DNA of 64,000 bases from an uncultured Nitrososphaerota archaeon (GCA_963718895.1 CAVRAG010000008.1:1280001-1344000), one strand, 5' to 3'; numbered from the stretch's first letter, positions 9,949 to 60,211 are shown. Numbers and translations: made by a program. The notes: generated by a model from the letters alone, not told the origin.

Positions 9949-10485
9949 TTGAAGATCTGGGAGTGTTACCGGTGCTCGTACTCGTTCGAGGGCGAGAATC
10001 CACCGGAAGAGTGCCCCAACTGCCATTACTCGGTCACGTTCTGGCTCAGTCACGACGAGAGGGAGCTGACCCTGAAGGACTTTGTCAGGACGAGGGTGCT
10101 GAAGCTGGACTCCGACCAATCTGTGTGGGACGCGGCAAAGCTGATGAGGGAGAACGACACCGAGAACGTCCTGGTCACGGTCAACGGGGAGCCCGTTGGA
10201 ATGATGACCGAGAAGGACATAGTCTACAAGGTCGCCGCCGAGGATCTTCCCGCCTCGAAGATCCTCCTTAGGAAGGTCATGTCTTCGCCGCTTGTGCTCG
10301 CGCCCTCAGACACTCCGATAACCGAAGCGCTGAAGATGATGGCAGAGCGGCACATAAGGCGACTCATCGTGACCGAGGGAGGCAGGCCGATAGGCATCGT
10401 GAGCCACAGATCCATCGTAGGCGGTAGCTTCAGGCTCAAAGACCAATCCTCTTCGGCTCCGAAGAGAACTCCGGAGACATCCTAG
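9949..10485 (+). CDS. Rubredoxin-like zinc ribbon fused to CBS pair
   Basis: WECYRC..PPEECPNC followed by two CBS repeats. Confidence 0.8.
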   Translation: MKIWECYRCSYSFEGENPPEECPNCHYSVTFWLSHDERELTLKDFVRTRVLKLDSDQSVWDAAKLMRENDTENVLVTVNGEPVGMMTEKDIVYKVAAEDLPASKILLRKVMSSPLVLAPSDTPITEALKMMAERHIRRLIVTEGGRPIGIVSHRSIVGGSFRLKDQSSSAPKRTPETS

Positions 10486-10596
10486 GTACCGGAGAACCGG
10501 GCCTCTGGCTAGAAGGCTCGCGCAGTCAGTGAGGAGTAGCTCCGCGAAAGGAGGGTATCCTCGTCTAGGGTGCGGTGCTTCAGTCGCTGGAGGATG

Positions 10597-11472
10597 TCAC
10601 GCGTAGCCTTTTTCTTTGGCCTTCGAGAGGAGAGCGCCGGCCTCTGCTTCCGCTTTTCCGAATATGGCAGGAGCGCTCTCGGGGGTGATCTCGCCGACCT
10701 CGACCGCCAGGGCCATGGCCTCTCTGTACGCCTTCGCAATTATCTCAGGCGCCGTGTCCTTGGTCAGGTAGCCGATGTATACGGCGAACCCATGGGCCGA
10801 GGCGAATCCTGAGATGAGGCTCTGCCTGTACTGTTCCAGGTCTATGGCGACAGCGTCGGCCGCGTAGATCAGGCCGTTGTCGTATGCTAGCGCTATGGAA
10901 AGGCCCGCTCGGATGGGCTTGATGCCGAGCTTCGAGAGCAGGCTCGCGAGCTTCGGCGATATTGAGCTGCCCGCCTTTGCGGCGACCGAGTCCTTCACGA
11001 TCCAGATGCTGCCCGACTCGATCTTGGTCGGGATGCCAGCCTCCCTGAACTCGCTGAGGACAGGCCCGGCAGGCTGCCCGGTGTTGCCCGCAGGCACGAC
11101 GATGTCCGTCGGCGCGATGTCGCCTGCCCTCGCGGCCAGGCTGACGCGGTTCTTCTCGAGCAGGAGGTAGAGCTTGAAGGGGTCGAGGCTCGAGAAGAGG
11201 AGCGCGTTCTGTCCGGTGAAGTGCTTGAGGAGCTCGTCGGCGTTCTTGATTCCGGCCCTCTTCAGCGCTAGCTTCGCCAGGTTGTTCTTGACGACCACGA
11301 TCTCGGCGTTGCCGCGGAGGACCTTCCTCACCGCCATCAGCTGGGCGGAACGGACCTTGGAGAGCTGTGTTACGACGATGACGGGGTACTTGTTCGACAG
11401 CTTCGAGATCTTTTCTACGGTGGCGATCTTCTTCTCGCTGTAATCTCGCTGGGCCTGTACCTGCTGGCTCAT
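10597..11472 (-). CDS. rpl10: 50S ribosomal protein L10 (P0)
   Basis: VVKNNL, ARAGDIAPTDIVVPAGNTG..AGP motifs. Confidence 0.95.
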   Translation of the reverse strand: MSQQVQAQRDYSEKKIATVEKISKLSNKYPVIVVTQLSKVRSAQLMAVRKVLRGNAEIVVVKNNLAKLALKRAGIKNADELLKHFTGQNALLFSSLDPFKLYLLLEKNRVSLAARAGDIAPTDIVVPAGNTGQPAGPVLSEFREAGIPTKIESGSIWIVKDSVAAKAGSSISPKLASLLSKLGIKPIRAGLSIALAYDNGLIYAADAVAIDLEQYRQSLISGFASAHGFAVYIGYLTKDTAPEIIAKAYREAMALAVEVGEITPESAPAIFGKAEAEAGALLSKAKEKGYA

Positions 11473-21839: not shown

Positions 21840-21953
21840 GCGGTCGTCGTCCAGATCACACTTGAGGACAATCTGGTCTAGGACATAAGCCCTCCAAGCT
21901 TGTAATCCCGCAAAACGGGACAGGAGACCCGGGTTCAAATCCCGGCGACCGCA
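21840..21953 (+). tRNA. tRNA-Gly(TCC) with two non-canonical introns (15/16 at 21855-21871; 45/46 at 21905-21926)
   Basis: Acceptor GCGGTCG/CGACCGC+A; T-arm CCGGG-TTCAAAT-CCCGG; anticodon stem TAAGC/GCTTG; both inserts form bulge-helix-bulge-like motifs (GTCC/GGAC; CTTG/CAGG); position 33 reads C. Confidence 0.88.
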
Positions 21954-21996
21954 CATCTATCACATGAGACGGTCGGAGTTTGTAAAGACTCGTTGG

Positions 21997-22032
21997 GATT
22001 TGAACCTAAAGTCAGGTGCACAAACACCGCAC
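21997..22032 (+). repeat. att-like site S1
   Basis: GATTTGAACC-TAAAG-N14-ACCGCAC. Confidence 0.7.
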
Positions 22033-22505
22033 ACGACCTACTACAACGCAGCCCGCATATCTCCTCCGCCGAACAAGGAGTGGTTCCTGATGACCTTCTT
22101 CGGATTTCTCGTACTAGGGCTGTACTTCCTTGGGAAAATCGTCCGTAAGAAGCCCCCGAACCAATGAGATTCGGCTGGACATTCCATCGATCTGAAACAA
22201 CAAGAGAAGCGCTCTCCAGTCAATCAAAAAGTAAGTCGATAATCTAGCCCAGTTGAGCTGGGTGCGGTTAGGTGTATCCTCCCACCGGGCACCCATGATA
22301 TTCAACTTCTTCAACTTCTTCAGGGCCGAAAACAAGACAGGCGACGGGAAGATGAATGAGGAGAACGGATATCGGGTCACTATGCCCTTCATGGTGACTG
22401 TCCTTTGCGCACATCTCAACGGCAGGATCTGACTGAGAGCGGGCCCGGAACTGAGGTGATCCGACTCACCTTTCGATTGACTGACAGTCCCTGGAGGGCG
22501 GCGTC

Positions 22506-22554
22506 GTCGAGGCTCTTGATCACGTATCCGATGGTCGAGGCTCTTGACCACGTA
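22506..22554. repeat. Short tandem duplication, period 28 nt
   Basis: GTCGAGGCTCTTGATCACGTA / GTCGAGGCTCTTGACCACGTA. Confidence 0.7.
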
Positions 22555-23311
22555 GCCTGCCCCCCAGCTCATTCTCCGCGTGCTGAAAAGACGCGGTTTC
22601 GGTTCTTGTCTTGAATCCCTTGGCCGCTGATTCCTGATGTTTTGAATCCCTCATGTCTAACAACCATGACCCGACGAATGGGATGCTGATGAAGATGCCG
22701 ACGACCAGTGCGATTATCACCACCACCTCATATTCCCAGCCGGGGATGGAATCACTCGGCTTCGCATCCGCGCTCGTCGCAGTTTGAGGTGCTGTCCAAT
22801 TTGACGTTGTGGTGGATGTGATCGTCGAGACTACTTGGATAGCTATTCCCATCAACAGATTACCCTGCGAGTAAATGGTGAGAACGTAATCGCCCGGAGT
22901 CGTAGGTGCGGTTATCTTGTAGAGCGCGGTGATGTTTCCTGTAACTCCGCTGAGGTTGTATGGGGAGAGAGCAATGACACTCGTGGGGCTGAACGTGAAC
23001 TTGGCGTTGTCGGACTGGTTCGACTCCCACAGCTGGAGTTGCGGGACTACGCCCGTGGAGTGCACGTCCCACGTGCTGACGAGGAGGTGGAACGTGCTTC
23101 CGACCATTATGTGGCTGAAGTAGACCCCGGCTTCACCGTCTCCTGTACGGTTGACGTAGACTTCGATTCCGTTGTTGTGGCAGTAGCAGCCATTGTCCCG
23201 GCTCGGCGTACCGTGCGAGAAGCTGCTCTGGGTCCAGACACCATACGTCGTTACCGTGACGCCCAGGAGCAATACTGTCAGACCAATCGTGTACATCCTT
23301 CGTTTGATCAT
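22520..23311 (-). CDS. Secreted, C-terminally membrane-anchored protein with GCxCH motif (Reeler-like)
   Basis: N-terminal hydrophobic signal, NGCYCHN, Ig-like strand pattern, Thr-rich linker, C-terminal TM. Confidence 0.6.
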   Translation of the reverse strand: MIKRRMYTIGLTVLLLGVTVTTYGVWTQSSFSHGTPSRDNGCYCHNNGIEVYVNRTGDGEAGVYFSHIMVGSTFHLLVSTWDVHSTGVVPQLQLWESNQSDNAKFTFSPTSVIALSPYNLSGVTGNITALYKITAPTTPGDYVLTIYSQGNLLMGIAIQVVSTITSTTTSNWTAPQTATSADAKPSDSIPGWEYEVVVIIALVVGIFISIPFVGSWLLDMRDSKHQESAAKGFKTRTETASFQHAENELGGRLRGQEPRPSDT

Positions 23312-23477
23312 TGCCGGTCGCTCCTCAAGAAGCTAAAGAGACGAAGCGGAACGGCTTCGAGAAGACCCTCGATTGTGTTCGGAGGACTTCGGAGCCTGAT
23401 TCCTGTCTCCTTGTCCGCAGTACCTTCATTGGTTGCAACTCGAAGTTGCGTCTTGAGGTGGCGTATCGCGGAATCAA

Positions 23478-23867
23478 CTATGACACCATGCTCCTAACAA
23501 GATCCGTTACAGGCGAATGGCATAACTTGTAGAACACCCATCTCTCCCTCTTGCTTCTTTGAAGCAGTCCAACTCGTTCAAGGATCCCCAAGTGATGAGA
23601 CATGGTCGGCTGCGTCATCTGTAGAGCAGACTCTAGCTCACAGACGCACATCTCTCTCTTCGACAGTAGCAGGATGATCTTGATTCTGCTGGGCTCGCCT
23701 ATTGCTCTAAGGATTCTCTCAGCCGACCGAATCTTCTCTGCGTACTCTGGCGACAAGATAGCTGCGCCATCAGCCATAGCAATTCTAACGTCTTCAGGTT
23801 GACAAAACCCAACAGCAACCAACCGATTGACAGATTTGTGGTGAGATACCTTCACCAACTCTTGCAC
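23478..23867 (-). CDS. ArsR/SmtB family transcriptional regulator
   Basis: RIKIILLL..EMCVCEL..TQPTMSHHL..L; true start uncertain. Confidence 0.88.
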   Translation of the reverse strand: MQELVKVSHHKSVNRLVAVGFCQPEDVRIAMADGAAILSPEYAEKIRSAERILRAIGEPSRIKIILLLSKREMCVCELESALQMTQPTMSHHLGILERVGLLQRSKRERWVFYKLCHSPVTDLVRSMVS

Positions 23868-24199
23868 CTCCTCGAACCAACCAACTGAATGAGGTCTGCA
23901 AACCCGGTCTCATGCGTCATCATACAGGTCACTTTCATCGAATTGGGTGTCTCCAACCAGACTCGGTTGAGCTGCAAATTCGAATTTAGTTTGTTGCAGG
24001 GCTTGTTGTGGAGAAGCGGCAGAACTAGGCAGGCAATCGTCGAAGTCTCACTCGATAGACTCGAAGGCAACGTTCATGCGTGTGAAGCTCATATTCACGC
24101 ATATAAATACATGGAAGCTCTTTCTCAAAAATGAGAATCCTCCGAATGTTGTGGTGGCAAAACCCCAACGCGTTAGGGATGCCATTTATGCCATACTAG

Positions 24200-24454
24200 A
24201 TGAGACTGGGGACCTCACTGAACACGGTCTTCAGGTACGTCGGTCAGACGCTCGGGTCCCCCACGGCCGGAGCTATCCTTTCGACGTTCGTCGCCGGCTA
24301 CTCGGTCAGTGGTCACGTGCTCAGCCTTCCGACCAGAGCCGCGTTTCATTTCTGCTCTTACGTCCCCGTGGTCGCTTTCCTAGCGGTAGGGCTGCTCTCG
24401 ATATTCGCCAGAGAAGTCATCGGGAAAAATGAGGACAAGGGCCACGCCATCTGA
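24200..24454 (+). pseudogene. C-terminal fragment of an MFS transporter
   Basis: GTSLNTVFRYVGQTLG..AGAIL and a final TM helix, with no upstream domain. Confidence 0.6.
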
Positions 24455-24656
24455 CTCTTCCCCCGGTCCTTGTGCGACTATCTCATGACATCCTTTGGCT
24501 TCGTAGTGGAGAGACTCGTCTCCTCGTCGCTTAGGAAGTTGTAGAAAGGGATGCGCCCTTCTTGTGTTACAAGGATTCCCCGGCCCTATCTTGGCGTTGA
24601 CGATTAACTTCTCCTCGCCGTCGCTGAGGCTGATTGCCTCCTTGAGTTCTGCGTGC

Positions 24657-24692
24657 AATCTGAACCTAAAGTTCAGCTTGCGGCGACCGCAC
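24657..24692 (+). repeat. att-like site S2
   Basis: AATCTGAACC-TAAAG-N14-ACCGCAC; ends CGGCGACCGCAC, identical to the tRNA 3' end. Confidence 0.75.
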
Positions 24693-24775
24693 CTATTCAT
24701 CTGAAATCGGTCCCTTGAGGACGCGTTGCCTTGTTTGCTCTACCAAGTTTGGGTCCTTACTGACGAAATCTTCGG

Positions 24776-26002
24776 TTACTGCAGAGCGCGCTGGGGTGGA
24801 GGAGTAGGAAGTGGCTTCTTGCGCGTCCTAACTAACACTAAGGCTGCGGCAACCGCCACAACGACCACCACCACGCCCACACCCACAATGCTCGATATTG
24901 GAAATGACAGAGGAGTTGGACTCGCAGTGGTGACAGAAGACGTAGGCAGCGGCGTGGTCAAAGCACTAGTTGTGGGAGTTAGGGTAACTGTTGGAGTCGA
25001 GCTTTGAGACGGAGACGCAGTTGAATTTGAAAACGGAGTTGCCAATGGAACGATTTTACTCAAGTCTATCGGCGTTTGGACCGACGGCGTCCACTGTGAG
25101 GGATCATTTGGGTTGGCGTTGGCGGTGTTGCCGACGTAGACTTGCAGCCGACCCGCCAAGGGCGATGATGGGTCAACGTATGCGTATGGATCTACAACCG
25201 CCTGCGCCTCAGAGAGCGGATAACTGACAAATACAACTCCATCTTGAGCTTCAATCTCAGCAGTTACTCTGACATCTACACCAATTGTTAAGAAAAAGAG
25301 TGGGGGAGAGAAACCATTTCCAGAGTATGAGGAGGAAAGTGTTCCCTCAGGAGAGCCGACATTCTGATCCGCGTAGGGACCTATTCCTTCGGCAAACTGC
25401 GCCACCGCCGGGGTACCGATACCCGCAACTGATACCCCGAAGCTGATGAATCCCTGCGCTAATGCATCTCCCCCCGTAGGGGTCATAGAGAAGCTGTAGT
25501 TGAGGTCAACAGGGATATTGACCTCAACCTTTGGAGAATCAAAAGGTCTTCCCGTTGTCTTGTTGAAGATTAGATATTGCCAATTTTCTAATTCCGCGTC
25601 TGCACTGCCCATTACATTGCTACCAAGTGACGGCGCACTTGCAGAGGCGATGGCTGTGGCCATCGGTTCATTCCCGTTGGCATAGATGGCTGCCTCCCCC
25701 ACTAATTGGCCGGGGCCCTGTACATTGCCCACAGAATCGCTGATACCCGAAGGCCACGTCAGGCTACTGGATAGGTCCTCATAGCCGCTTGCATACAAGA
25801 AGTGTTCGGAATTGGCGAGGGTATTGGCGAAGGGGTTGCAGGACCCTACATTTGGATCCAAAGTTACTGTTGCTGGGGGTATTGTTTGGGCATGCGCGCT
25901 ATGAAGTAGAAGGCTACTTGAAATGAAAACCGATATCAAGAGGACAGCCGTAACCGATGTCTTCAACCTCAGGCGAAATCTTCGCCCTGAAATGGTCAAC
26001 AT
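24776..26002 (-). CDS. Hypothetical secreted surface protein with Ser/Thr/Pro linker and C-terminal TM anchor
   Basis: Signal peptide ending AHA-Q, low-complexity linker, hydrophobic helix followed by basic RTRKK. Confidence 0.75.
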   Translation of the reverse strand: MLTISGRRFRLRLKTSVTAVLLISVFISSSLLLHSAHAQTIPPATVTLDPNVGSCNPFANTLANSEHFLYASGYEDLSSSLTWPSGISDSVGNVQGPGQLVGEAAIYANGNEPMATAIASASAPSLGSNVMGSADAELENWQYLIFNKTTGRPFDSPKVEVNIPVDLNYSFSMTPTGGDALAQGFISFGVSVAGIGTPAVAQFAEGIGPYADQNVGSPEGTLSSSYSGNGFSPPLFFLTIGVDVRVTAEIEAQDGVVFVSYPLSEAQAVVDPYAYVDPSSPLAGRLQVYVGNTANANPNDPSQWTPSVQTPIDLSKIVPLATPFSNSTASPSQSSTPTVTLTPTTSALTTPLPTSSVTTASPTPLSFPISSIVGVGVVVVVVAVAAALVLVRTRKKPLPTPPPQRALQ

Positions 26003-26335
26003 GCTTCACCTCGCCCAAGCTGGAATGGCATCCGGGCAATCAGAATCCAAAAAGCGAGGACCAGAATCGAGGCAGAAGTGAAAAGTACCGTTGAGAGGGC
26101 GGATGTCGTCGCCAGAGCCGCGAGCGTCGCGTAGCCGCCAATTCGACAGAGCCTCTTGCGGGCCGAATCTTCAGTTTCGGCCTTGGACTCATCTGTACCG
26201 TGTTGGCCTAGGCCAACCGGCGTGCTCATTGTTCAGAAGCCTGGTTGTGACGAGGCAATTGGAGTATTAAAACCAACACCACGATTCTCAGAATTGGGAA
26301 GCCCAACGCCTGTACCGCTTGGAACCCTCGTGTGC

Positions 26336-26371
26336 GATTTGAACCTAGAGTGTGATGCTCGACGACCGCAC
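26336..26371 (+). repeat. att-like site S3
   Basis: GATTTGAACC-TAGAG-N14-ACCGCAC (CGACCGCAC). Confidence 0.75.
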
Positions 26372-26426
26372 CTATCCCAACCTCCCACGTGCGCGGAAGC
26401 GTGGGCAAGAACGCGCGCAACCGGTA

Positions 26427-26882
26427 ATGCAAGCGACATACTATTATTTGGTGAGAAAGCATACAGCAGAGAGATTGGGAGAGTCGTTAGTCTTGGGAGT
26501 AGAAAATGTGTTCAAAATAGCGACGACCTACGCCGTAGTTCGCGGGTTCCTGACAAGCAACGGTTGGGAACTCCAGGGAAAGGATGAGGAAATGGAGATG
26601 GACTCGTTCAGAAACAAGAAGACAGGGAAGAAGCTGTTCGTCGAGGAGATTTCGGAGGACTTTCCAGTGACCTTTCTTATGGGCGAGCTTAGCATGGCGG
26701 AGTTCGGGAACATCGCTAGTGAACTGACGCCGGAAATCGAGTTACTTGAAGTCGACAGTAGTTGGGAAGGCAAACCGACGACCATCGTGTGCGCGATGAC
26801 AGAAGAGCAAGTTAGGAGCATGTTCGGCAGAAGAACGAGGATGAGAAAGGTTGCGGTTCACCGCACGGCGTCACAGATTTGA
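26427..26882 (+). CDS. Hypothetical protein filling the S3-S4 cassette
   Basis: Single ORF; its TGA stop lies within the GATTTGAACC arm of S4; start uncertain (26352 or 26427). Confidence 0.6.
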   Translation: MQATYYYLVRKHTAERLGESLVLGVENVFKIATTYAVVRGFLTSNGWELQGKDEEMEMDSFRNKKTGKKLFVEEISEDFPVTFLMGELSMAEFGNIASELTPEIELLEVDSSWEGKPTTIVCAMTEEQVRSMFGRRTRMRKVAVHRTASQI

Positions 26883-26913
26883 ACCTGAAGGTCTAAATTC
26901 CCGGCGACCGCAC
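26876..26913 (+). repeat. att-like site S4 (outer attR)
   Basis: GATTTGAACC-TGAAG-GTCTAAATTCCCGGCG-ACCGCAC; 15-nt exact match to the tRNA-Gly 3' end. Confidence 0.85.
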
Positions 26914-27062
26914 TTCTCCTTTCACAATGCAACCTCCCTGGCGTCCAGGATTGCGTGAGAATCCGAACGACCTAGGTTCCTCTGGAGTCCGTCGTCATGT
27001 CCGGCACGCACTCGCATGAAGGCCTAGTGTGGAGTTCGAGCAGATGCAGAGCGGATGCGTCG

Positions 27063-53421: not shown

Positions 53422-53460
53422 GGTGCGGGGGGTGAGAATTTATCCCTTCGGGTTCGAATC
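53422..53460 (-). repeat. att-like site S5 (attR of the Leu island)
   Basis: Minus strand GATTCGAACC-CGAAG-GGATAAATTCT-CACCCCCCGCACC. Confidence 0.85.
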
Positions 53461-54287: not shown

Positions 54288-55323
54288 AGGTGTGTCGAAT
54301 AACTAACTCCTCTGTCAACCTTCTTTCATTCGTTCCCTGATGGGATTGAGAAGATCTCGCTCTCTCGTGCCCGAGAAGAAGAAGCGGAACTGGAAGGAGT
54401 ACAACGAGTCGCTGGTGAGGAGGGGAGAACTCCTCTTCGATACCGATTTTTTATCTGGTTGGAGCAGAGAACTAGAGAGTCTCAACGAGGAGAAGGAAGG
54501 AGCGAGGTATCGCTATCCAGACTCGTTAATGAGTATGCTCGCAGCCATCCACGTGTACCTGCTCCCGTACAGGGAGCTGGAAGGGTTCCTCAGGATGTTC
54601 TCGGGGCACGTAGAAGGGTTGAGAGTCCCAGACTACACCACGATGTGGTGGAGGATATCAAGGGTGAAGGTGGAGCTCGACCCAAGTGTGGATCCAAAGG
54701 AAGACGTGACCATAGCGGTTGACTCGACTGGCATCAAGGTCTCCAACCACGGGGACTGGATGAGGCACGTCTGGAAGGTGAAGCGGCCCTTCATCAAGGT
54801 ACATCTCGCAGTGGACGTCAGGACCGGGAAGATACTGTCGATGGAGGTGACGAAGGAAGAGGTAAGAGACGCAGAGATGCTCGTCCCGCTGGTCGAGCGA
54901 GCGTCCTCGAGCGCGAAGGTGGCGAGGCTGATGGGCGACGGGGGATACGATTCGAGAGCCAACTTCAGGTACCTCCACGATAACGGGATTGAGCCCGTCA
55001 TCAAGGTAAGGAAAAATGCCTCGTCGCACGCACACGGGTGCATGCCGAGGAAGCTCGTCGCGATGGAGCAGCTGAGAGACTACGAGAGATGGAAGACGAG
55101 GCACGGGTACGGCCAGAGAGCGAGGGTCGAGTCGGCGATATCGTCGTTCAAGAGGACGTTCGGGGAGCACGTAACCTCGGTGAGGTGGAGGAGCGTGGTC
55201 AACGAGCTGCTCGTCAAGGCGTCGGTCTACAACCTGTTCGTCGGGAAGAACCTGTAGCAATGGCTAGGAGTCGGCGAAACCACGAGCAAGAAGTGACGCA
55301 CCGTCAAGTTATTCGACACACCT
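54288..55323 (+). mobile_element. IS5-family (IS903/ISH1-like) insertion sequence
   Basis: Perfect 17-bp TIR AGGTGTGTCGAATAACT; near-perfect 9-bp target duplication ATGATCCTC / ATGATCACTC. Confidence 0.93.
54340..55257 (+). CDS. IS5-family DDE transposase
   Basis: RNWKEYNESLVRRG, PDYTT, AVDSTG, KVHLAVD, GDGGYD, YGQRARVES. Confidence 0.95.
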   Translation: MGLRRSRSLVPEKKKRNWKEYNESLVRRGELLFDTDFLSGWSRELESLNEEKEGARYRYPDSLMSMLAAIHVYLLPYRELEGFLRMFSGHVEGLRVPDYTTMWWRISRVKVELDPSVDPKEDVTIAVDSTGIKVSNHGDWMRHVWKVKRPFIKVHLAVDVRTGKILSMEVTKEEVRDAEMLVPLVERASSSAKVARLMGDGGYDSRANFRYLHDNGIEPVIKVRKNASSHAHGCMPRKLVAMEQLRDYERWKTRHGYGQRARVESAISSFKRTFGEHVTSVRWRSVVNELLVKASVYNLFVGKNL

Positions 55324-57329: not shown

Positions 57330-58882
57330 TTACGTTCCCTCCCCGACCCTACGGGTCGGCTCCCCTCCCTCCTTCAGGGGGCGTGAGGGGGCTCGGCTTT
57401 GCTCTCGTTTGCTGCGGCTCCTGCTGCTCCAATGGCTTCCTTTAGCTCCGGCAGGGTTGCTATCTTGACTCTCTCCGCGGCGTAGCGCGAGTATCTCCCC
57501 GCTTCCTCGTAGTTCGGCGCCAGGATCGATCATCCGCTTGGCGCTCTTGGAAAGGCGCTCCTGCAAGTCCGCTTTTGAGTGCTTCAAGCCCGTCTCTATC
57601 TCTAAGTCGAACTCTGGCGTCTCTATGTCTGGAACCGACCCGTCGCCTGTGGAATTCGTCTTCGATACGGTCACACCGCTAGCCGTGAGTATGCTCACCG
57701 CCTCCTTCTGCATGTAGTCGTGGATGGGAGAGAGGTTCGGGTCCCTGACATAGTAGAGAACCTTTCCCTTTCCCATCGAGTCGAGGTATCGTATGCGCCC
57801 TATCCCCGTCTGGTGGAGCGGTTCCTTCCTCAGGATATTCAGTATCTCGTTCTCGTAGTCTGTGGTATCGGCCCTCTTCGGCTGGAGGGGAGCGACATTG
57901 GCGGGCTCGTCGTACTGCACCTGCCGCTCTGGAAGCTCGGCCCTGTCCGCCCTGAAGATGGGGACTATGCCACCGTTCCCCACCCGAAAGGTGAGGTCGA
58001 TGAACTGATGCGGTCGAAGCTCCTTCACTATCCAGACGTAGGCGGAATCAATCTTACGTATCGCCTCCAGATCCATCTCTGACGTAGTGTTGAAAGTGAG
58101 TTGGGTAGCGAACTGGTTCCTTAGCGCGCGTCTGGGATATCCGAATAGTTCTGTGTAGCTGTGTAGAGAGCACCGAACTGCCTCACCTGCCTCATCAACG
58201 TGTCAACGATCGTCCTCGCCTCAGTCTCGTAGAGCTGGGTCAGCCTGTGAACCTCGTCTATCACGATGATGGTCTTCTTCTGCTTCTCTTGGACGCTAAT
58301 GCTACTGGTGAGTGAGCTCCATATCTGCCTGAGCGCAATCTCTGCGTAGAACGTCTTCGCGCTCTCGTCGAGATGAGAGAAGTCGAGGACGGCGTCCGTG
58401 GCGAGGTCTACGCTGAAGGAACCTTCCCCAACGACTAGACCCCCAATCTGAGCCTCTATCAGCGCCAGCGCCTCCTTCTGTATGTCCGTGCCCTTCCTCT
58501 CGGCGTGCTTGAGGTTGTCCCTGAACTCGCTCCAGTTCTTACTTTGGCGAGCGGTGCTCTTGACTAACGCCCGGACCTGCGAGAATGTGATTCCTCTTAC
58601 GTTCGCGGGGAAGGCGAGAGCGTTTGCTATCGCGAACGCATCAGCATCCTGGAACGGGTCGGGTATGTGTCTTGAGACGTCTACCACCTGGCACGGCATC
58701 CGAAGGTAAGCGTCGTTTGGCTTGAACGAGAAGACGGTCTTCGGTTCCTTCGCCGAGAGCAGGAGGACGTTCATCAGCTCGCTCTTGTCCATTCCAGAGC
58801 GGCCGCAGATCATCACGGACGGGTTCCCCTTCCGTCCAATGTATTCGTCAAAGTTCACGTAGCAGATTCTTGCCATAATCAA
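57330..58882 (-). pseudogene. HerA/VirB4-like ATPase with C-terminal PD-(D/E)xK-like domain, split by frameshifts
   Basis: Walker A GRSGMDKS (expected GK), Walker B IVIDEVH, ATQ; frame continues (LRNQFATQLTF) after a CG duplication near 58125; PDI...LEIETG; further shift near 57527; end approximate. Confidence 0.7.
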
Positions 58883-60069
58883 GAGGTTGGAGCGCCAGAT
58901 AGGTACTTCTCGACGACCTTCCTGAGCCTGGCTAGCTCTTCCCTTGTGCTTTCGTCCTCGACCTGCATCCTGCTCCTTGCACCTTCATCGAGGGGAGAGG
59001 CGCACCGTGGACAGTAGACCATGCCTCTGGATGCCTTCTCGTTGCAGCGCGGGCAGATAATCGGTGCAAACTCTGGCTTGGTCGGTTCCACCTTCTCACC
59101 CGAATATAGGGCAGTTAGCTTGTCATCCAGGTCTCTCCCCGAAAGGTGGACGTAGACGGCGGGCATCTTGCTACTCATAGACCATCCATACATCAGCTTG
59201 AGTTCAGAATCCGTGAGGAACTTCGCGTTTCTGGTCGCCGAGCCGTGTCTCAGCATGTGGTTGAAGACCCTCTTCTTCACTCCCGCACGTAGCGCTAGCT
59301 GCTTCAGGCAGCGGTTCCACCTGACCCAGCTTAGCCGTTGGTTCTTGTAGTTTGTGCTCTCCGTGAGCCATAATGGAGAGGAAGGCTCGTTCCTGAACGG
59401 GTGAACCTCCAGGTATCGAGCGAGCAGGCTCACAGAGGTTATCAGCCTCACGACCCTGCTTCCTGTCTTCCCCCTCTCGATGTGAAGCCTCGCCCCTCTA
59501 TCGTCAAAGACGACGCTCCCGATGTTGAGGGTGAGCAACTCGGTAGCTCTCAGCCCTGCCTCGTAGCCGACTGCCAACATAGCCTTGTCCCTCAGACTGG
59601 TCGCCGCCTTGATCATGACCTCGATTTCCTCGCTGGTGAAGAAGAGAGGCTCCTTGCGCTCGTTCGCCTTTATGGCGGTCTTGATCCATCTTACCTCCTC
59701 TGGGTAGGGCGTCTCTCTGTCCACGTTCCCAGTTCTTGCGAACTTGAAGAACCTCTTCACAGCAAAGAGATAGTCCGAAATCGTGTGCGGCGTATAGCCG
59801 GAGTCGCTCTGCAACCATGCGACTAGTCCCTCGATGTCTCCCCTCTTTGCTTGCTGGGTGCTTGTCCCGAGGCGTTCGATTGCGTTCTTCAGGTGATAGG
59901 TGTACTTGGCAAGCCTTCCAGTGGATACGCCCTGAGCCTTCAGATGTTGAACGAACCTGCGAATCACCTCCTTGTCCTCATTGCAGATTCGCGCTGATTC
60001 GTCCAGGCGCTTCTGAGCGTTCGCGAGTCGCGATTCGTAATCATACACCTCCTCGATTACGTCCTTCAT
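58879..60069 (-). CDS. Tyrosine recombinase/integrase with C-terminal zinc ribbon
   Basis: RDKA..YEAGLRATE, GKTG, HMLRHG, YGWS, VYVH; CPRC..CPRC. Confidence 0.95.
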   Translation of the reverse strand: MKDVIEEVYDYESRLANAQKRLDESARICNEDKEVIRRFVQHLKAQGVSTGRLAKYTYHLKNAIERLGTSTQQAKRGDIEGLVAWLQSDSGYTPHTISDYLFAVKRFFKFARTGNVDRETPYPEEVRWIKTAIKANERKEPLFFTSEEIEVMIKAATSLRDKAMLAVGYEAGLRATELLTLNIGSVVFDDRGARLHIERGKTGSRVVRLITSVSLLARYLEVHPFRNEPSSPLWLTESTNYKNQRLSWVRWNRCLKQLALRAGVKKRVFNHMLRHGSATRNAKFLTDSELKLMYGWSMSSKMPAVYVHLSGRDLDDKLTALYSGEKVEPTKPEFAPIICPRCNEKASRGMVYCPRCASPLDEGARSRMQVEDESTREELARLRKVVEKYLSGAPTS

Positions 60070-60126
60070 GCCATACCGGAGAACGTCTGCTTTTAACGGA
60101 GAGAGATTTGCACTCATGGCGTAAGG

Positions 60127-60211
60127 TGCGGGGGGTGGGATTCGAACCCACGAACCCCTAAGGGATTGGAGCCTCAGTCCAACGCCGTTGGCCATGCTGG
60201 GCGACCCCCGC
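60127..60211 (-). tRNA. tRNA-Leu(GAG), intronless, long variable arm
   Basis: GCGGGGG/CCCCCGC acceptor, TTGGA-CTGAGGC-TCCAA anticodon arm, GTGGG-TTCGAAT-CCCAC. Confidence 0.95.

Follow-up and report, generated by a model that had tools for sequence, protein, structure and literature searches.

Probable tandem accretion of integrase-less, att-flanked remnants at a tRNA-Gly gene of an uncultured Nitrososphaerota archaeon

The passages of PMC5704250 on streptococcal integrative and conjugative elements (ICEs) set out the definition of cis-mobilizable elements (CIMEs) and a model of their accretion. As described there for the ICESt1 family of Streptococcus thermophilus, successive elements enter at the same tRNA 3' end by means of a tyrosine integrase, and older elements keep attL and attR but not the genes for integration and transfer. 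This is the closest match to the locus reported here, an array of four attachment (att) sites, S1 to S4, that follows a tRNA-Gly gene between positions 21,840 and 26,913 of a 64,000-nucleotide stretch (hereafter the window) from an uncultured Nitrososphaerota archaeon (GCA_963718895.1 CAVRAG010000008.1:1280001-1344000, that is, G000:C8:1280001-1344000). The window belongs to a 3,127,762-base metagenome-assembled archaeal genome with a completeness of 80.5% and a contamination of 5.4%; the genomes compared with it are metagenome assemblies throughout, and anticodon readings and some alignments were made by eye. Like the CIMEs of those passages, the array is made of att-flanked, integrase-less units that could in principle be moved by a related integrase. 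Unlike them, it is archaeal, its identity segments measure 9-14 nt, its units go down to 79 nt and 0.55 kb, its att sites carry a conserved 15-mer resembling an inverted T-loop, and any mobility of its units would be putative. The array probably arose by tandem accretion of integrase-less, CIME-like remnants at a tRNA-Gly integration hot spot. It is a variant of a known process and not a new gene-capture machine, and its sites are not a new kind of signal; what is distinctive is the att grammar together with the unusually small size of the integrase-less units.

Other described systems share part of this organization. The cryptic Thaumarchaeota elements of Krupovic et al. 2019 (PMC6563490) come from the same phylum, insert into the 3' part of tRNA genes, intron-bearing ones included, and mostly lack recognisable virus or plasmid genes. 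In the passages of that paper their att sites at tRNA 3' ends measure 8-26 bp (median 17), and arrays form by re-use of one site. Those elements were found via their integrases, whereas most units here are integrase-less and the integrase family concerned lies outside that survey; the same passages, att-site Table S2 excluded, mention neither an inverted T-loop arm nor integrase-less arrays. Tandem integration is mentioned in reviews of archaeal tyrosine recombinases, with no occurrence of 'T-loop', 'T-arm' or 'arm-type' in the passages of PMC8371274, and a full-text literature search returned no paper on a site combining a T-loop-like arm with a core. Integrons, archaeal ones included, as presented in passages of Ghaly et al. 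(10.1101/2022.02.06.479319), have in common with the array co-oriented sites, short accessory segments, a fixed acceptor and a variable order. Unlike integrons, the array has no adjacent IntI-type integrase gene with attI and Pc promoter, its segments are not single promoterless co-oriented open reading frames (ORFs), and its sites are tRNA-derived att junctions instead of attC. Islands anchored at the ssrA (tmRNA) gene of Dehalococcoides, in the part of PMC3146451 that concerns them, resemble it in their accessory metabolic genes and in site-specific insertion at the end of a small stable-RNA gene; they are bacterial and use a different target gene. An SSV-type ('suicidal') organization is excluded, since the integrases next to tRNA-Leu and tRNA-Gly are intact and not split by the att site.

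The anchor, the stub that follows it and the four sites are arranged as follows.

21840..21953, plus strand: tRNA-Gly-like gene, 114 nt (sequence, Rfam, fold, orthologues)
21954..21996, plus strand: element left-end stub (N8-CATGAGA...GTTGG), 43 nt
21997..22032, plus strand: S1, 36 nt, GATTTGAACC + TAAAG + N14 + ACCGCAC; S1-like subfamily
24657..24692, plus strand: S2, alpha-type, 36 nt, AATCTGAACC + TAAAG + TTCAGCT + TGCGG + CGACCGC + AC
26336..26371, plus strand: S3, beta-type, 36 nt, GATTTGAACC + TAGAG + TGTGATG + CTCGA + CGACCGC + AC
26876..26913, plus strand: S4, gamma-type, distal attR, 38 nt, GATTTGAACC + TGAAG + GTCTAAATT + CCCGG + CGACCGC + AC

A preliminary description of this DNA had proposed four co-oriented sites starting at 21997, 24657, 26336 and 26876, and the sequence agrees. 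At each of the four, the first arm is the reverse complement of the T-loop 10-mer GGTTCAAATC of tRNA-Gly (21932-21941) and ACCGCAC, the tRNA 3' end at 21948-21954, closes the site; the spacing is fixed and the sequence within it variable, again as had been described. The direct repeat of the tRNA 3' end is CCCGGCGACCGCAC at 21941-21954 and in S4, and it shortens inward to CGACCGCAC in S2 and S3 and to ACCGCAC in S1. The tRNA end and S1 are 43 nt apart, S1 and S2 2660 nt, S2 and S3 1679 nt, and S3 and S4 540 nt. A regular expression for the full motif, run over both strands of the 3,127,762-base assembly, matched four times, all at this locus, against about 0.01 matches expected by chance according to our own arithmetic. 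Beyond 26913 the chromosomal flank begins again with a GC step at S4, the GC content being 0.52-0.54 within 22000-27000 (tRNA to S4) and 0.58-0.62 on either side. Contigs from public runs that may include the source sample span S2, S3 and S4 with no differences (X2 record 13, X1 record 8 and X3 record 24), and X2 record 9 spans the stretch from the tRNA to S1. The insert has the marks of an attL/attR island (a repeat of the tRNA 3' end at its far border, absence from a relative, foreign GC and a shared att architecture), with no integrase inside. As in CIMEs, att-type sites lie on both sides of every unit (tRNA/S1, S1/S2, S2/S3, S3/S4), and the segments hold neither integrase nor transfer genes.

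The nature of the sites is revealed by elements that do carry an integrase. One of them lies in the window itself, at a tRNA-Leu gene.

60125..60211, minus strand: tRNA-Leu(GAG), attL of the sister element (ARAGORN; Rfam 49.8 bits)
58879..60069, minus strand: tyrosine integrase Int-Leu, 396 aa (Pfam PF00589 E 1.4e-16, PF02899 E 1.5e-6)
53422..53460, minus strand: attR of the tRNA-Leu element, GATTCGAACC + CGAAG + GGATAAATT + CTCAC + CCCCCGC + ACC

Here the integrase directly follows the tRNA, and 6.7 kb beyond stands an attR with the layout and spacing of S4. Int-Leu, which has a SAM-like N domain, a catalytic domain and a C-terminal zinc ribbon, is the sole member of its integrase family that genome-wide searches found in the G000 assembly; an integrase of the right family to act in trans is thus present in the window, as had been pointed out. 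In G021, G007 and G001, tRNA-Leu integrases 83-92% identical to Int-Leu are followed by the same attR 7.7-8.0 kb away. The congener G020 has a 400-aa integrase (Int-Gly; PF00589 E 2e-17, 53% identity to Int-Leu) behind the orthologous tRNA-Gly, itself beside Nep1; its element measures 18.8 kb and ends in GATTCGAACT-N19-CGACCGCAC, spaced as in S4. In all five integrase-bearing elements for which both ends are available (the Leu element of the window, those of G021, G007 and G001, and the Gly element of G020) attR consists of the arm, 19 nt and the acceptor, in keeping with the earlier claim that S1 to S4 are recombination sites of att type, and conservation among the regions upstream of attR begins precisely at the arm. 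The integrases beside tRNA-Leu (396 aa) and tRNA-Gly (400 aa) are intact, their genes starting past the att core.

The relative G007 supplies the empty site: tRNA-Gly is followed by an ABC-transporter gene within about 120 nt, whereas 4.4 to 11.6 kb separate the two in other congeners. The segments are foreign DNA devoid of integrase and replication genes, as proposed, given their low GC, this empty site and the negative Pfam and tblastn searches reported below. The preliminary description had also suggested a motif scan and a comparison of cassette order. The arm 15-mer matches 37 times in 23 genomes of the genus against five for a reversed control, and 38 times against ten in 151 sampled genomes of the order, 25 of these 38 falling within the 25 genomes of its own family; array content and order both differ among relatives, in agreement with that description. 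Arrays were found at three tRNAs in at least three genera and a second family: at tRNA-Leu in G008 (five sites) and G017 (four), at the Glu-type tRNA in G007 (two arrays), and at tRNA-Gly in G010, G014, G024 and G098; the second family is represented by G078. G008 and G017 have the 43-nt stub again behind tRNA-Leu and behind beta sites, and G010 has it behind tRNA-Gly; its CATGAG stands at the same offset as in the attL flanks of integrase-bearing elements. Stub and S1 together make up an 'empty' unit of 79 nt between att sequences, a left end joined to a right end with nothing between.

These features were probably produced by the following sequence of events. A tRNA-targeting tyrosine integrase of this family (Int-Leu in the window, Int-Gly in the congener) would recombine the attP of its element with the tRNA 3' end, attP having only the acceptor 3' strand, 9-14 nt, in common with the tRNA. 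To the left of the attP core would lie conserved element sequence opening with the 15-mer GATTYGAACCYRRAG, the 'inverted T-loop'. Each integration would restore the tRNA and displace the older junction outward, and serial integration at the tRNA would therefore leave co-oriented arm-plus-core sites with the oldest next to the chromosome: S4 would be the oldest attR, and S1 to S3 internal junctions. Resident segments would then shed their integrase and most of their content until att-flanked remnants were left, the 79-nt empty unit being the smallest. The arm itself may be a protein-binding site, the outer inverted repeat of attP whose partner would be left at attL. In such an arrangement, a pair of T-loop-like putative binding boxes for the integrase or a partner protein would be split, the left one passing to attR and the right one staying at attL, and the genuine T-loop would supply a similar box in attB. 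In the integrase-bearing tRNA-Gly element of G021, GTTCAAATCGCACAC lies 12 nt to the right of the core; read on the opposite strand, it matches the S3 arm and its 5' flank exactly. A weaker CAAATC box occurs at the same offset in 10/10 integrase-bearing attL flanks, which represent about four independent lineages, with 3-6 mismatches of 15; for comparison, best matches in 27 control tRNAs of the genome have 4-8 mismatches at scattered offsets. In distant members of the family (29-37% identity, other archaeal phyla) the tRNA end is separated from the integrase gene by a palindrome of the TTGAACCTAAGGTTCAA type.

The probable position of the crossover can be read from the 0.55-kb cassette between S3 and S4. 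Its left end CTATCCCAACC... abuts CGACCGCA both after the tRNA (G024, G011) and after S3 in the window, and the five bases ahead of CGACCGCA differ (CCCGG vs CTCGA). With CGACCGCA shared and the preceding 5 nt different, the crossover would therefore fall within the acceptor 9-mer, probably within CGACCGCAC, which fits the short thaumarchaeal att repeats in the passages of PMC6563490.

Further observations concern the integrase family and its elements. A DDE_Tnp_1 transposase (54340-55257, E 2.8e-28) lies within the tRNA-Leu element of the window, and low GC extends also beyond that tRNA (60.2-63 kb), which may be a further foreign segment. The near-palindromes between tRNA 3' end and integrase gene, of the TTGAACC-TAA-GGTTCAA type, were seen in L076, L077, L080, L081, L083 and L061, from Methanomassiliicoccales, Thermoplasmatota and other metagenome-assembled genomes, some labelled as bacteria. 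Upstream of the Nitrososphaerales integrases of L056-L059 (48-50% identical) the order is reversed: a T-loop-like GTTCAAATC is followed after 4 nt by GTGCGGTGGCC, which resembles a tRNA 5' end, which hints that this branch may target tRNA genes in their 5' part, or in the opposite orientation. A third island of the genome (L023, G000:C8:625000-629200) stands after a tRNA with acceptor GCCCCGG and opens with a 394-aa ORF that has no Pfam match of its own and resembles a PF00589-positive ORF at C8:1191328 with 30% identity (tblastn E 3e-29). About 3.9 kb on comes an arm-plus-core-type site, GATTCGAACC-TAGGC-TTGGATG-CTCGC-CCGGGCC, and the arm would therefore be common to elements with a second, very divergent recombinase. 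No free attP (arm side, core and left end) was matched in metagenome or viral contigs, and no relatives of the integrase were found in viral contigs. The Int-Leu query likewise found none in G024, G023, G098 and G078, an empty answer that is not proof of absence.

At the level of the sites themselves, an alignment of 24 from the window and 13 loci of relatives (25 regular-expression matches minus L021:3342, not site-like by eye) gives a consensus: the arm GATT(T/C)GAACC, YRRAG, 7 nt, 5 nt corresponding to the T-stem 3' strand, 7 nt of the acceptor 3' strand, and a discriminator base. Spacing is constant and sequence variable because the stretch from arm to core keeps tRNA geometry, with 7 nt standing in for the loop, 5 for the T-stem and 7 for the acceptor. 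Subtypes recur among genomes, namely alpha with TTCAGCT (as S2), beta with TGYGATG (as S3) and gamma with 9 nt including TAAATT, two bases longer (as S4); S1 belongs to a fourth group whose right part is reduced to CCGCA. The layout occurs on three tRNA 3' ends, CGACCGC (Gly), CCCCCGC (Leu) and CCGGGGC (Glu-UUC by eye). Covariation of the arm with the T-loop of its anchor was considered and holds for four Gly and four Leu gamma sites only; it is ruled out by G017 (T-loop TTCGAAT, arms GATTTGAACC) and by the Glu-type arrays, where the T/C position of the arm does not follow the anchor. The arm is therefore a family-wide feature of the elements and not a copy of each target. A hairpin of the arm in single-stranded DNA is predicted in 6/16 sites, every one alpha-type (fold z of S2 -3.1), and not in S1, S3 and S4 (z from -0.7 to +0.6), so that a general single-strand hairpin, and with it attC-like folding, was dropped. 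The same happened to the idea that TAAATT of gamma sites is an integrase TATA box in a circular form, and, once the anchor tRNA and the common layout had been seen, to the idea that Glu-type sites are tRNA genes with T-arm introns. About 22-30 nt ahead of the start codon, the left end of the elements has a conserved GCGTTAAATGC box.

The anchor is a genuine tRNA-like gene. It has the acceptor stem GCGGTCG/CGACCGC, the T-arm CCGGG-TTCAAAT-CCCGG and the anticodon loop CCUCCAA, read by eye as Gly-UCC, and it is enlarged at two places, by 17 nt in the D-loop and by a variable-region hairpin of about 23 nt. The attL core consists of its 3' end, made up of the T-stem 3' strand, the acceptor CGACCGC and A. 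ARAGORN does not call it at 21840-21953, nor in intron mode, in which numerous implausible introns were proposed; Rfam recognizes 21840-21956 only through a tmRNA match of the tRNA clan (E 1.1e-5). The minimum-free-energy fold is cloverleaf-like with both extra segments (z -4.2), and orthologues sit after the same Nep1 gene in G007 and G010. Upstream lie genes for Nep1, a hydrolase, a peroxiredoxin and a DsbA-like protein, and the closest integrase is 32 kb off, at another tRNA. In the anticodon loop C, not U, precedes the anticodon. The variable-region hairpin, UCCCG-CAAAA-CGGGA in the window, lies between the anticodon arm and the T-arm; in G024 (L040, 3079-3190) a hairpin in the same position has both strands altered (UCUC-AAC-GAGA), and tRNA-Gly of G007 (L018) and G010 (L016) has a canonical 37/38 intron instead. 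The hairpin may have come in when an element integrated and supplied its own copy of the 3' part of the tRNA. The D-loop insert is found in all compared tRNA-Gly genes (window, G007, G010), G024 excepted. The reverse complement of S3 (26336-26371, minus strand) and the 5' part of tRNA-Gly (21840-21873) have in common a 10-mer GCGGTCGTCG and an 8-mer ATCACACT in the same order, D-loop insert included, the 8-mer being missing from the G007 orthologue; this likeness may be chance or the relic of an old inversion.

Between the sites lie the following segments.

22033..24656, both strands: segment 1, a patchwork (Pfam, homologues)
22520-23311, minus strand: 263-aa secreted/membrane-like ORF, segment 1; no Pfam family
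23478-23867, minus strand: ArsR-type regulator, segment 1; Pfam HTH_5 E 4e-15
24200-24454, plus strand: 3' fragment (last 84 codons) of an MFS transporter gene, segment 1; complete gene in G010
about 24486-24646, minus strand: C-terminal fragment of an ORF family of about 240 aa, segment 1; cut off about 10 nt ahead of S2
24693..26335: segment 2, two ORFs, with a decayed left-end stub CTATTCATCTGAAATCGG...GCGTTGCC at its left end
24776-26002, minus strand: 408-aa Thr/Ser-rich surface-type protein, segment 2; no Pfam family
25996-26229, minus strand: 77-aa membrane-like ORF, segment 2; no Pfam family
26372..26875, plus strand: segment 3, the 0.55-kb cassette with one ORF of unknown function (Pfam, copies in relatives)

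Per segment there are 0-4 ORFs, which lie on both strands and include gene fragments. The segments are decayed: the MFS 3' fragment and the cut ORF beside S2 are both full-length elsewhere, the latter in at least five other genomes, and its family shows a TraG P-loop similarity (E 0.005) below the cut-off. The cassette ORF has 151 aa from ATG 26427 or 176 aa from GTG 26352, and its stop overlaps S4; the 151-aa protein has no Pfam family and no usable match in the ESM Atlas. A Pfam scan of the ORFs of 21954-26913 found neither an integrase (PF00589) nor a replication domain. Segment 2 has a 74% homologue in G012, and the pre-S2 segment is present in three copies in G001 that are just 82-85% alike, which rules out recent intragenomic copying. 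A second, 86% identical copy of window 22459-23753 (the 263-aa surface-type ORF with the ArsR regulator) lies on the same contig at C8:543168-544433.

Copies of the cassette with 80-88% identity are present in six other genomes. The cassette directly follows the tRNA in G024 and G011, S3 in the window and an S2-like site in G010, and its gamma site is degenerate in G010 and G024. G007 has an orphan gamma Gly-type site (L019, G007:C1:1205185-1205253) with the last 69 nt of the cassette at 93% identity; it lies 215 kb from the tRNA-Gly of that genome, and a T-arm/acceptor scan found no tRNA-like gene within 7 kb. In L030 (G014:C19, about 127-205), around 60 nt of the cassette ORF stop at GTGTTCAAA and continue into TCCCGGCGACCGCAC, the joint falling at a T-loop-like GTTCAAA within the ORF, which suggests recombination or microhomology joining at a pseudo-site.

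Several results weigh against an origin of the array by accretion of decaying remnants, and most of them would favour an active, integron-like platform, in which the tRNA 3' end serves as a standing acceptor and a family integrase encoded elsewhere moves cassettes in trans as circles. Under this explanation, which we regard as unlikely but well short of negligible, cassettes of 79 bp-8 kb, each ending in arm plus core, would be reshuffled within arrays and exchanged between lineages of Gagatemarchaeaceae-like archaea, passing transporters, metal pumps, dehydrogenase operons, toxin-antitoxin pairs and regulators between genera; the 15-mer arm with the acceptor core would be a portable signal, and the whole, evolved independently in archaea, would correspond to the integron in function. 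Decay alone should have left some integrase pseudogenes behind, and PF00589 at E<=1e-5 is found in none of 98 ORFs (>=110 aa) from eight arrays in seven relatives; nor did tblastn with Int-Leu and Int-Gly reveal any integrase remnant in the island at E<=1e-3. The array cargo, comprising MFS and sugar transporters, P-type metal ATPases, a CoxSLM-type dehydrogenase operon, an aquaporin, PIN/AbrB, short-chain dehydrogenases/reductases (SDRs), regulators and a TFIIB homologue, is one of accessory metabolism and transport genes, not of plasmid or virus genes. (An example is L017, G001:C21: at 10179-10862, inside an array of S-type sites, it has genes for a TFIIB-repeat protein, E 1.8e-25, and for two response regulators.) G008, G010 and G014 have arrays and no PF00589 match found anywhere in their 77-88% complete assemblies. 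Cassette order varies, as seen for the 0.55-kb unit, and the segment with the 408-aa gene plus one site is present in the window and absent from G010 between homologous flanks, exactly from site to site. In G024, of a different genus, the cassette is 87% identical against 67-69% over 19.7 kb of core DNA, which points to a recent transfer of an integrase-less unit, and S2 keeps 95% identity over 41 nt; arms and cores are in general much better preserved than the DNA around them. In four soil/peat runs, contigs of other organisms share S2 (>=90%) and diverge on both sides, at 24654-24661 and 24692, so that S2-type sites stand between unrelated flanks, and other foreign contigs diverge at 21954 and 26913. 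The spread of arrays over three tRNAs and beyond the family points the same way. As for the proposed mechanism, most elements show just a weak inverted arm partner at attL, and the elements compared stem from few independent lineages.

What decides for accretion of remnants nevertheless is that the same far-end site belongs to complete elements. The preliminary description had favoured an integron-like platform of a new kind; this is not supported, since integrase-bearing relatives with that site, which it had itself set against the idea, exist as four tRNA-Leu elements and the 18.8-kb tRNA-Gly element of G020, and since gene fragments, left-end stubs, genes on both strands and hairpins in a minority of sites do not suit it. 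Its fallback, decayed tandem islands, is the better reading. No array adjoins an integrase, and several array-bearing genomes have none found of this family to drive a platform; segments hold fragments and genes in both orientations instead of single promoterless ORFs; the divergence of the G001 copies speaks against recent duplication, and sites such as that of the cassette in G010 and G024 have decayed. Fragments, stubs and a decayed promoter-like box fit deletion; no integrase pseudogene was found. The breaks of foreign contigs and the identity of the cassette would fit site-specific joining of different DNAs with at least one recent integrase-less transfer; independent integrations, co-transfer with a complete element and deletion between direct repeats give rise to these patterns as well, and serial tRNA integration with such deletion also yields all the differences in order. 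The contigs of the four public runs, in which numerous parts are uncovered, contain no joints and hence no direct sign of excision or deletion. That the arm is instead a coding or RNA sequence (a minus-strand N-terminus of the ..RFK/RFR.. kind, a plus-strand D-L-N-L-K, a small structured RNA or a tRNA pseudogene) is very improbable. Three variants are synonymous in the plus frame (TTG/CTG, CTA/CTG, CTA/TTA), and a minus-strand ORF begins just right of S2 and reads through it; this ORF, however, is a truncated fragment whose homology begins past the site, S3 has an in-frame TAG on the minus strand, one attR (L024) has stops three codons upstream in a by-eye translation, and no ORF is common to the sites, on which ground both frames were rejected. 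The 80-nt unit, likewise discarded as a structured RNA, shows no compensatory pair among 14 predicted pairs and no Rfam family, and the T-arm of the sites is unpaired on the minus strand. Chance likeness or an assembly artefact, conceivable at the outset in a metagenome-assembled genome of this completeness and contamination, is already refuted by the four matches where about 0.01 were expected, by the excess of the 15-mer over its reversed control in the genus, and by independent contigs that span sites without differences.

Read in this way, the locus yields the att grammar of an archaeal integrase family not described before: a 15-mer arm, a tRNA-shaped spacer and a 9-nt acceptor core. It allows integrase-less islands in abundant acid-soil archaea to be bounded to the base, in a lineage whose family-defining genome paper (PMC10640624) nowhere mentions an integrase, a mobile genetic element or a genomic island in the main text. 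The T-loop mimicry of the arm suggests how one integrase family may retarget among tRNAs. A sizeable share of the accessory genes of these archaea lies in such arrays at few tRNA genes and, if the units are mobile in trans, they would be one way in which genes spread in a lineage for which mobile elements have not been discussed.

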